A stretch of 64,000 nt of DNA from Escherichia coli (GCF_045037415.1 NZ_CP173438.1); one strand, 5' to 3'. Positions 12,128 through 17,870 are shown, counted from the stretch's first letter. Made by a program: numbers and translations. Notes: a model not told the origin generated them from the sequence alone.

Positions 12128-12622
12128 TCAGAACAGCCCTTTAACTGAACTGGCCGCGCTGTTAAGAGATGATGTCACCTTATCTTTGAAGCCGGACAGC
12201 ATATCACTGAACGATGAGGATTGCAGGCGCTCCCGCAAATCCTCATCACAGCGTTCAAGAGTCAGTGAAAATTCTATCTTTTTCGCCTTACCGTAGCGAT
12301 CAAACTCGGAGCGGGTCGTATTCGTTTCAGTCAGGACATACATGCCGTAAATCTGCCCGACGCCATCAATCAAAGGCCAGGGTCGTCCTGTATACGCCTG
12401 CGTGGTCAGCAGCGACAGCGACACTTCGCCACCTGTAATTTCAGGATAAAGCACACCAGAAAGAACGATGCGATCATCACCTGCACCGATATACTGCCAG
12501 CTTGCTGAACGGTTAACGCGTTCATTTTTCACATGCCGCCAGCTTTTGTTTTGCTGTAACTGCTGATGCGGCAGCGTGCGCAGCTCAAAAACAAACATGC
12601 CGTAGATCATCATCATGGCCAT
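12128..12622 (-). CDS. tail protein U (P2 gpU-like)
   Basis: 164 aa; pattern ...LRT.P.Q.LQ....WRHVK.ER..RS..WQ..G.GDD.I.LSG.L.PE.TGG..SL.LL.T.A.TGRPWPL.DG.G.IYGMYV matches gpU as recalled. Confidence 0.8.
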   Translation of the reverse strand: MAMMMIYGMFVFELRTLPHQQLQQNKSWRHVKNERVNRSASWQYIGAGDDRIVLSGVLYPEITGGEVSLSLLTTQAYTGRPWPLIDGVGQIYGMYVLTETNTTRSEFDRYGKAKKIEFSLTLERCDEDLRERLQSSSFSDMLSGFKDKVTSSLNSAASSVKGLF

Positions 12623-12628
12623 GACTCC

Positions 12629-16529: not shown

Positions 16530-17713
16530 CAGGCACCTCCCAGCACCGCAAATGCGGGACCAAAGAATTCATCAGTAAACGTCTGGTAAAGCTCCATGTC
16601 TTCCAGCGGGGGAACGGGCGTATATTTGTAGCGAATACGCACACGCCCCTGACGTAAATCCGTGGTGCCGTTATCCACCACGTCATACCAGCACTCCGCG
16701 CCAATCAGTTTCCCGGCAGTAACCAGCGAATCCAATTTTGCCCTGATGGCACTGATAACATCCTTCACGTTCGCAGGCGTCAGTGGACTGTCGATGGTTT
16801 CAAACTGCGCTTCCGCAATTGAATCAGCCAGCACCTGTGCGGTTCGGGTATACACCTCAAAGATGTAGGCGTTCGTTTCCGGTGTGCGGTTGCCCCAGAA
16901 GCGGAACCCGTTACGACGAATAATGGTCGTGATTTCTTTGTTGTTGAGGCTGTTGGCATCACTGTCTTCGGCCTGTAACGACCAGAACACATGCCTCGAC
17001 ATCCCCAGCACATTTTTAACCGGAACGTTGGACAGCGATTTGTGCCAGCCCTGCTCATGGTCAATGTACGCACGAAGGCCGCACGCATAAGCAGGCGCGG
17101 GGAACGTTTCGTTTTTGCCACTTTTCGGGTTGTAGGCGATGAAGTCAGGCCATAAGAGCATCACCTCACGTTCGTTGAATTTCTGGCGGTAGGTAATCGC
17201 CTCAGCCATCGTGTTACAACCATGACATGTGGCATACACAAACGCGCGCAGTTTACCCGCAATCACGCACAGGGATTTTGTCACCGCCTCCGTGTCCAGC
17301 TCCGGCGCGGCCAGAATACGCGGACGGTATCCGATGCTTTCATCCTGCTCTGCAACAAGCAGCGCATACATCCCCGTATAGCTGCCGTCAGATTCAGAAC
17401 CACCGATAACCAGTTGATCCTGCGTCCTACCGCCTTCTTCTTTGTGTTCAGCCACGCGAACGACGATCACTTTTGTGCTCACCTGGTCTGCGATAGCCTT
17501 AAGCGCACGATAAAGCGTCCCCGTAGTCCCGCATTTTCCCAGCACGTCATTGACGCGGGTCAGCAGTGTGGGCTTGTTCAGCGGGAACAGCTCCGCATCC
17601 GCATCATCCGCCGTTGCCACGATACCGATAACGCTGGAATCAACATCATTAATCGCTGTTACCAGGTCGGTACTTTCCGTGACACGGGCACCATGAAAAC
17701 GAGTTTCACTCAT
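16529..17713 (-). CDS. tail sheath protein (P2 gpFI-like)
   Basis: 394 aa; motifs ...ADDADAE.FPLNKP.L...GTL..L.AIADQ...; ...QGWHK.LSNV...; ...DGFRFWGNRT...NYTRTAQV.AD..AEA match gpFI as recalled. Confidence 0.9.
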   Translation of the reverse strand: MSETRFHGARVTESTDLVTAINDVDSSVIGIVATADDADAELFPLNKPTLLTRVNDVLGKCGTTGTLYRALKAIADQVSTKVIVVRVAEHKEEGGRTQDQLVIGGSESDGSYTGMYALLVAEQDESIGYRPRILAAPELDTEAVTKSLCVIAGKLRAFVYATCHGCNTMAEAITYRQKFNEREVMLLWPDFIAYNPKSGKNETFPAPAYACGLRAYIDHEQGWHKSLSNVPVKNVLGMSRHVFWSLQAEDSDANSLNNKEITTIIRRNGFRFWGNRTPETNAYIFEVYTRTAQVLADSIAEAQFETIDSPLTPANVKDVISAIRAKLDSLVTAGKLIGAECWYDVVDNGTTDLRQGRVRIRYKYTPVPPLEDMELYQTFTDEFFGPAFAVLGGA

Positions 17714-17870
17714 AGCTTCAGCCCCTTGTATCCGTTAAATGATTCGGCAACAATCATCACCCACCACGCGCGTAATCTCACCCCTGCGCCGTTCTCCCGC
17801 CACGGCGACAACAAAAAGCAGTAACCCCCTCCGCACGCACATGCGACCATGCCGCACAGGGAGGGAGCAG

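Follow-up and report, generated by a model that had tools for sequence, protein, structure and literature searches.

Does a P2-type prophage in which the sheath, tube and tape-measure genes run against the rest of the late region represent a rearranged and possibly defective element, or does it belong to a lineage in which this layout is the rule, and how would its late genes then be controlled? The question is raised by a sequence from Escherichia coli (GCF_045037415.1, NZ_CP173438.1), of which we analyzed one stretch of 64,000 nucleotides (referred to here as the window, with coordinates counted from its first letter). In the annotated P2 record, V-W-J-I-H-G and FI-FII-E-E'-T-U-D-ogr all lie on one strand, which matches the gene order from which a first, sequence-only reading of the window had started. 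That reading pointed to an inverted block of tail genes between fibre genes and D, and offered a changed regulatory layout or a rearranged and possibly defective prophage as its meaning. Our overall explanation, to which we assign a probability of roughly 85%, is that the layout is an inversion inherited in the P88 lineage and that FI and D would be expressed from divergent late promoters sharing a single activator dyad, the promoter part being a prediction.

Gene map and intactness of the tail region

The map of open reading frames, combined with PHROG profile matches, places U, T, E/E', FII and FI on the minus strand (12128-17713) and H, G, the invertase, D and ogr on the plus strand (Table 1). 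The inversion of these five genes relative to P2, the divergence of FI and D from a 157-bp spacer (17714-17870) and the uncoupling of D from the F operon had all been described from the sequence alone, and the present map agrees on each of these points, as D is found 5.2 kb from U, on the opposite strand and adjoining FI. In P2, the end of U and the start of D overlap at 22791, whereas D of the window stands outside the operon, without translational coupling to U, and the FI-U segment occupies the strand opposite both to V-G and to D. What the F operons of P2 and of the window have in common is their gene content, the order of the genes within the block, the frameshift device of E/E' and an Ogr/Delta gene following D, at a protein identity of only 33-49%. 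The start chosen for D is preceded by GGGAGGGAG and agrees with the annotation of P88. The ogr gene begins 40 bp past the end of D, and alignment of its product with P2 Ogr and with homologues of other genera reveals a C-X2-C-X24-C-X4-C motif. Past ogr, a hok-like ORF is followed by serS, rarA, lolA, ftsK, trxB and cydDC, which points to an E. coli-like host and puts the end of the prophage near 19.8 kb.

Table 1 Features of the prophage part of the window, with the basis of each assignment
Feature	Position	Strand	Basis and remarks
L, head completion	112-615	+	Start of the P2-type late region in the window
Lysis genes, R, S, V, W, J, I, then H, G		+	Order after L
H, tail fibre	7408-9393	+	
G	9396-9929	+	
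Invertible fibre segment	After G		Minus strand: G' and an alternative C-terminus of H
Gin/Pin-type DNA invertase	11482-12099	+	phrog_125, 1e-96
Hairpin, 12-bp stem	12089-12118		Convergent gap between invertase and U; terminator scan and sequence reading
U, gpU-like tail protein	12128-12622	-	phrog_76, 5e-75; last gene of the leftward F operon
T, gpT tape measure	12629-15472	-	phrog_28, 8e-220; exact start codon uncertain; overlaps the end of E'
E, gpE	15587-15961	-	phrog_103, 4e-36
E', -1 frameshift extension of E	E/E' 15423-15961	-	Three-frame translation and heptamer; tail assembly chaperone pair
FII, gpFII tail tube	16017-16529	-	phrog_55, 1e-58; P2 FII has the same label
FI, gpFI tail sheath	16529-17713	-	phrog_23, 1e-124; first gene of the leftward F operon
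FI-D divergent control region	17714-17870		157 bp
Predicted -10 of leftward PF, GATGAT	17753-17758	-	In-register comparison with P2 pP/pO and four other genera
Predicted -10 of rightward PD, GACCAT	17845-17850	+	In-register comparison
D, gpD baseplate hub (late control D)	17871-18980	+	phrog_52, 2e-166
Ogr/Delta-family zinc-finger late activator	19021-19281	+	Pfam Ogr_Delta PF04606, 8e-14

All seven genes of the P2 F operon are present and intact in the block, including the -1 frameshift of E/E'. All block proteins have their full length and, apart from E (71.5%), share 93-99% identity with their P88 counterparts; D and Ogr are likewise full length and within this identity range. For the individual proteins, identity to P88 and to P2, respectively, is 99.4% and 46% for U, 97% and 42% for FII, 97.5% and 46% for FI, and 99.2% and 49% for D, while T is 93.5% identical to its P88 counterpart over 947 aa. 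The frameshift site is kept as the slippery heptamer A_AAT_TTT at 15644-15638 of the minus strand, 3' of which a gpE'-like frame runs to 15423; P88 annotates both the E and the E' pieces. The hairpin in the gap between the invertase and U is a plausible candidate for a bidirectional terminator, at which transcripts of the invertase gene and of the leftward F operon would both end.

Close relatives and prevalence of the layout

A megablast search with window positions 9000-20000 returned Xuanwuvirus phages with 93-96% identity over 70-90% of this segment, these being P88, P884B11, Citrobacter phage Shae_phiSM and Escherichia phages 520873, 503458 and 500465-2; it should be noted that the window covers the prophage from L to ogr, which amounts to its right half. 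The gene order in the window is that of P88, namely L-X-lysis-R-S-V-W-J-I-H-G, the invertible fibre segment, the invertase, U-T-E'-E-FII-FI on the opposite strand and D-ogr, and the annotations of both P88 and Shae_phiSM give invertase(+)/U-T-E'-E-FII-FI(-)/D(+), with the same strands as in the window. The Xuanwuvirus phages resemble the window in order and strands from H to ogr, in the invertible fibre segment and invertase, in the inverted F block and in the 157-bp spacer, which differs from that of P88 at a single position (156/157 identical). The differences are that the window carries a gene for a 625-aa SASA-esterase-like protein between the lysis genes and R, which is absent from P88, that its E is the divergent protein noted above, and that the variable parts of the tail fibres differ from those of the Xuanwuvirus relatives. 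Judged from this half of a genome, the window contains the right half of a P88-like prophage (Xuanwuvirus, Peduoviridae) of E. coli. The 14-mer of P88 attP was not found in the window.

The layout is common. Of 5426 complete E. coli genomes, 1300 (about 24%) contain the FI-D junction (17114-18470) as a single piece, and the FI(-)/D(+) arrangement with a spacer of 156-157 bp was found in 79/79 IMG/VR loci, these being contigs that encode a D protein at least 99% identical and were counted if FI was also present (n = 79). For comparison, a synthetic canonical junction was built by fusing the 3' end of U to the 5' end of D; this junction was found in one piece in none of the 1414 E. coli genomes that hold both halves, and the opposite orientation of the block was likewise seen in 0/79 of the IMG/VR loci. 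As all 79 loci are divergent and the canonical junction is absent from all 1414 genomes, we consider the orientation of the block to be fixed.

Several phages with this layout have been characterized experimentally. P88 is mitomycin C-inducible and plaque-forming, with a burst size of about 65 and contractile tails as seen by electron microscopy (PMC5285337). Phage phiSM is released spontaneously, forms plaques and lysogenizes K-12 (PMC6456863), and SEN4, a more distant relative considered below, forms plaques and produces myovirus particles as seen by electron microscopy (PMC5261728).

Distribution across the Peduoviridae and origin of the inversion

A sensitive blastn search with the junction showed that more distant phages also have FI and D adjacent and divergent. 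In the annotated records, the inverted block is found in Novemvirus phiT5282H, Reipivirus ST16-OXA48phi5.4, Reginaelenavirus 3LV2017 and Senquatrovirus SEN4, while Peduovirus P2, Graikaemvirus, Kapieceevirus, Wadgaonvirus and Aresaunavirus have the canonical layout. The four phages of the first group share with the window the inverted F block, the divergent FI and D, the Ogr gene after D and the dyad position, at protein identities of 55-76% for FI and 64-79% for D; unlike it, they lack an invertase gene in the interval from the fibre genes to U. In neighbour-joining trees (the only method used, with 11 sequences), the six inverted-layout sequences form one clade, supported by 200/200 bootstraps for FI and 199/200 for D. 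The inverted orientation is a fixed, inherited trait of this five-genus clade, and it is compatible with infectious virions that have contractile tails. The P2 gene order is not universal in the Peduoviridae, as an alternative layout exists in at least five genera.

Three other explanations of the layout should be weighed against inheritance from an inverted ancestor. The sequence-only reading had considered a rearranged, possibly defective prophage. In its stronger form, this would mean that D was separated from the F operon by a recent event, with a cryptic element as the result. Such a reading could be suggested by the departure from P2 and by the fact that the window covers part of the prophage only, its left half lying outside. 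Comparison with P2-related phages contradicts it, since functional close relatives, P88 and phiSM, share the arrangement, SEN4 is plaque-forming with the identical layout, the junction recurs in 1300 complete E. coli genomes and in every one of the IMG/VR loci, and the window has intact genes, a preserved frameshift site and a spacer almost identical to that of P88. At the level of layout, a defect is thereby refuted and has a negligible chance of being correct, and we regard the arrangement as a trait of the lineage with near certainty. A functional prophage type carried by roughly one in four complete E. coli genomes is in this way spared the label "rearranged" or "defective" for no other reason than its difference from P2.

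The second explanation treats the entire F block as a large invertible segment, or phase switch, whose orientation would be changed back and forth by the Gin/Pin-type invertase. The invertase gene directly adjoins U, and to its immediate left is the tail-fibre segment on which the enzyme normally acts, bounded by inverted repeats at 8668-8837 and 11280-11449. However, gix-like 26-mers occur only within these repeats (8674-8699 and 11418-11443); at the boundaries of the F block, the best matches to such sites have 13-16 mismatches out of 26, and no inverted repeats that could be a trace of inversion were found flanking the block. Together with the absence of the opposite orientation from all 1414 E. 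coli genomes, the distribution of the invertase speaks against this idea as well: no invertase lies beside U in the inverted-block genera Novemvirus, Reipivirus, Reginaelenavirus and Senquatrovirus, whereas in Wadgaonvirus an invertase gene directly precedes a canonical FI, meaning that invertase presence and block orientation vary independently across genera. The invertase adjoins the block but is not responsible for its orientation, and a switch of this kind can practically be set aside. The third explanation, that the inverted layout arose repeatedly or spread through exchange of tail modules, deserves somewhat more credit, as phage genomes are mosaic, a clade of tail genes could in principle reflect transfer of the tail module, and E of the window is only 71.5% identical to that of P88 while its neighbours reach 97-99%. 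Nevertheless, FI and D, which lie on either side of the breakpoint, give the same clade with nearly full bootstrap support, and the five genera share the geometry of the breakpoint, with a spacer of about 153-157 bp and a dyad 81.5-88.5 nt from FI. We consider repeated origin or exchange very unlikely. The simplest reading of these data is a single old inversion in the common ancestor of the five genera, which we infer with high, though not complete, confidence.

A candidate activator dyad in the FI-D spacer

The TGT-N12-ACA consensus of late promoters activated by Ogr, as well as the C4 zinc finger of Ogr, is summarized in PMC3931495. An exact TGT-N12-ACA is not present in the spacer, and its matches across the whole window are fewer than expected by chance. 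The sequence-only reading had reported that the spacer contains no clear dyad of this kind, which is literally true but misleading, as a conserved one-mismatch variant, TCT-N12-ACA, is found at the expected position (17793-17810; in the extended form GTTCT-N12-ACAACAAAA, 17791-17816). Compared with the strict consensus, only the left half-site is changed, by one base, to TCT. The centre of this dyad, at 17801.5, is 88.5 nt from the ATG of FI and 69.5 nt from the ATG of D, and the dyad is the only intergenic one-mismatch match of the family in the prophage part of the window. The sites annotated in P2 are imperfect too, reading TGT-N12-CCA both at pP/pO and at PF.

Taken by itself, one dyad with a single mismatch in 157 bp is not statistically remarkable; with a looser dyad pattern, the spacer has 3 matches against 1.1 expected, and looser patterns are not significantly enriched in the window on their own. 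For this reason, the case for the dyad rests on its conservation across genomes. In P88, Novemvirus and Reipivirus, TCT-N12-ACAACAAAA occurs exactly twice per genome, with one copy each in the P-O and FI-D spacers, and is always oriented towards O or D. Reginaelenavirus and Senquatrovirus differ from the window in having kept the perfect TGT half-site, with TGT-N12-ACA at the same place of the FI-D spacer. Measured from the dyad centre, the ATG of FI lies at a distance of 81.5-88.5 nt in the inverted genera and that of D at 68.5-76.5 nt; in the canonical genera, a perfect dyad is located 78.5-85.5 nt upstream of the FI ATG. The F operon of the window is in this respect like that of P2, with an Ogr-type dyad about 82-88 nt upstream of the FI ATG, and unlike it in that the dyad reads TCT-N12-ACA.

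A model for late transcription of FI and D

The P2 record provides a reference for a divergent late region, as a single activator site there serves both pP and pO, whose mapped starts lie 55.5 nt to either side of the dyad centre. A shared PP'/PO' dyad has also been described in another P2-like phage (PMC3931495). We aligned on the dyad centre the P2 pP/pO spacer, three P-O spacers and all FI-D spacers. Every spacer has a hexamer of the xAxxAT type (TAxxxT on the pP side) 43.5-48.5 nt to each side of the centre, with two cases in which it is about 1 nt further out, and most of the aligned spacers have a GC-rich, GCGCGCG-like block between hexamer and dyad. On the D side, all five genera conserve the xAxxAT hexamer at +43.5 to +48.5 and the GC-rich block at about +29 to +38, while the rest of the spacer has diverged. 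The FI-D region resembles P2 pP/pO in that two divergent late units are separated by about 155 bp, with a single dyad in the centre and a -10-like hexamer to either side of it. It is unlike P2 pP/pO in that sheath and hub genes flank it, rather than terminase and scaffold genes, and in that its promoter pair is predicted while the P2 pair is mapped.

From this comparison, we propose that the inversion carried the activator site of PF along with the block and placed the dyad next to D, and that the FI-D spacer may now function in the manner of P2 pP/pO. One dyad of the Ogr type would then lie about 55 nt upstream of two opposed late promoters that lack a -35 element. The leftward PF, with a predicted start near 17746, would drive FI-FII-E/E'-T-U and end at the hairpin at 12089-12118, and the rightward PD, with a predicted start near 17857, would drive D and probably read into ogr. 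The product of the Ogr-like gene at 19021-19281 would be the presumed activator; in each of the five inverted genera, D is followed by a gene for an Ogr/Delta zinc-finger protein. The exact transcription starts are predictions that should be taken with low confidence. The predicted -10 hexamers are weak (3-4 matches out of 6), and the predicted leader of D is short, at about 14 nt. A scan with the sigma-70 consensus gave no convincing promoter in the spacer, and none in the rightward direction, and an Rfam search over 1-20500 returned nothing.

One of the two possibilities that the sequence-only reading drew from the divergence of FI and D was a pair of late promoters in the spacer, with regulation organized differently from P2. 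This possibility fits the conserved dyad and the hexamers resembling -10 elements, with the refinement that one predicted site would be shared by both promoters. Conservation and geometry suggest that one activator site probably drives both PF and PD. Alternatively, the dyad could serve PF only, as in P2, with D being expressed from an Ogr-independent promoter or through a second, unrecognized site. The dyad is nearer to D than is usual, at 69.5 nt from its ATG, and the weak GACCAT hexamer and short leader of PD would be in keeping with a PF-only site. On the other hand, the spacer holds just one match of the dyad family and no rightward sigma-70-type promoter, the hexamer and GC-rich block on the side of D are conserved in five genera, and P2 pP and pO use one site with the same geometry. 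A dyad dedicated to PF is therefore an unlikely account, while that of a shared dyad offers a simple and testable way in which D could have stayed under late control after leaving the F operon.

Relation to published descriptions

The layout itself is already known, being present in annotated public genomes of characterized phages as well as in the large share of complete E. coli genomes given above. Nonetheless, our literature search found no paper in which the inversion is explicitly described, and neither the inversion nor the orientation of the block is mentioned in the papers on P88 (PMC5285337) and SEN4 (PMC5261728). The papers on P88, phiSM (PMC6456863) and SEN4 likewise discuss neither the reading of the FI-D spacer as a region with one shared dyad nor the TCT half-site found in three genera, and only these two points can be considered mildly new. 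In practice, the predicted late promoters of the inverted-layout clade escape a strict search for TGT-N12-ACA.

The left half-site reads TCT and not TGT at each of the two late control regions of Xuanwuvirus, Novemvirus and Reipivirus. A symmetric PF site may have been co-opted to drive D after the inversion, giving rise to a second bidirectional, Ogr-dependent region like pP/pO, and the TCT half-site could mean that the activator co-evolved an altered or asymmetric specificity; we hold the chances of this scenario to be about even.

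Variation within and beside the inverted tail block

The inverted tail block of the window prophage is not uniform in its resemblance to phage P88, as the tail assembly chaperone gene E shares 71.5% identity with its P88 counterpart, and the flanking FII, FI and U share 97-99%. On these identities, E is a small mosaic patch within the block. A different kind of variation is seen in a related IMG/VR contig, IMGVR_UViG_2654587728_000014 (433-7612), where the tape measure gene is broken at about residue 455, its C-terminal half is turned around together with U, and the invertase is present twice, with the copies inverted relative to one another. 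The divergence of FI and D is kept in this contig. This arrangement is either a local rearrangement or recombination between two prophages.

Beside the block lies an invertible tail-fibre segment (see table), which is 89-93% identical to the segments of Mu, D108, P1 and P7. Its minus strand carries G' and an alternative C-terminus of H, and in the orientation found in the window, H is read through to give a 661-aa protein.

Coordinates of features in the window and, where available, in the P88 record.
Feature	Window	Strand	P88	Remarks
Invertible tail-fibre segment	8668-11449			Mu G or P1 C type; inverted repeats and gix-like sites
Inverted repeats of the segment	8668-8837, 11280-11449
gix-like sites of the segment	8674-8699, 11418-11443
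E	15587-15961	-
Small hypothetical protein (RefSeq)	17693-17824 region		15254-15385	Spans FI start and spacer
Ogr homologue			16575-16832
625-aa ORF	2061-3938	+		DUF1737, SASA (sialate O-acetylesterase-like), DUF6645; phrog_143
hok/gef-like toxin ORF, 46 aa	19473-19613	+		Between ogr and serS

Annotation and description of the relatives

RefSeq annotates a small hypothetical protein, in P88 as well as in E. coli genomes, that overlaps the conserved non-coding dyad (candidate Ogr-type site) of the FI-D spacer. As conservation between genera in this region is confined to the dyad and short promoter-like blocks, this ORF is probably a spurious call. The P88 RefSeq record lacks an ogr CDS; an Ogr homologue, 98.8% identical to that of the window, is nonetheless encoded. 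In the record of the Citrobacter phage Shae_phiSM (phiSM), the product names appear to be shifted by one gene, with the name late control D on the sheath gene and ogr on the D gene. Particles of phiSM were described as siphovirus-like with non-contractile tails, although the deposited genome, contrary to this description, carries a P2-type tail module of sheath, tube and tape measure (PMC6456863).

Prophage right end and a putative cargo gene

At the right end, the prophage adjoins serS, followed by rarA, lolA, ftsK, trxB and cydDC (19919-33281). The P88 attP 14-mer does not occur in the window, and the attachment site of this copy may, therefore, differ from that of P88. The P88 counterpart of the hok/gef-like ORF is annotated as MokW-like, of the hok/gef family; Rfam gave no match to a Sok-type RNA at the gathering threshold. 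The 625-aa ORF lies between the lysis genes and tail gene R, which in P88 are separated by a gap of only 137 bp. This ORF looks like a NanS-p-type esterase cargo gene of a P2-like prophage.
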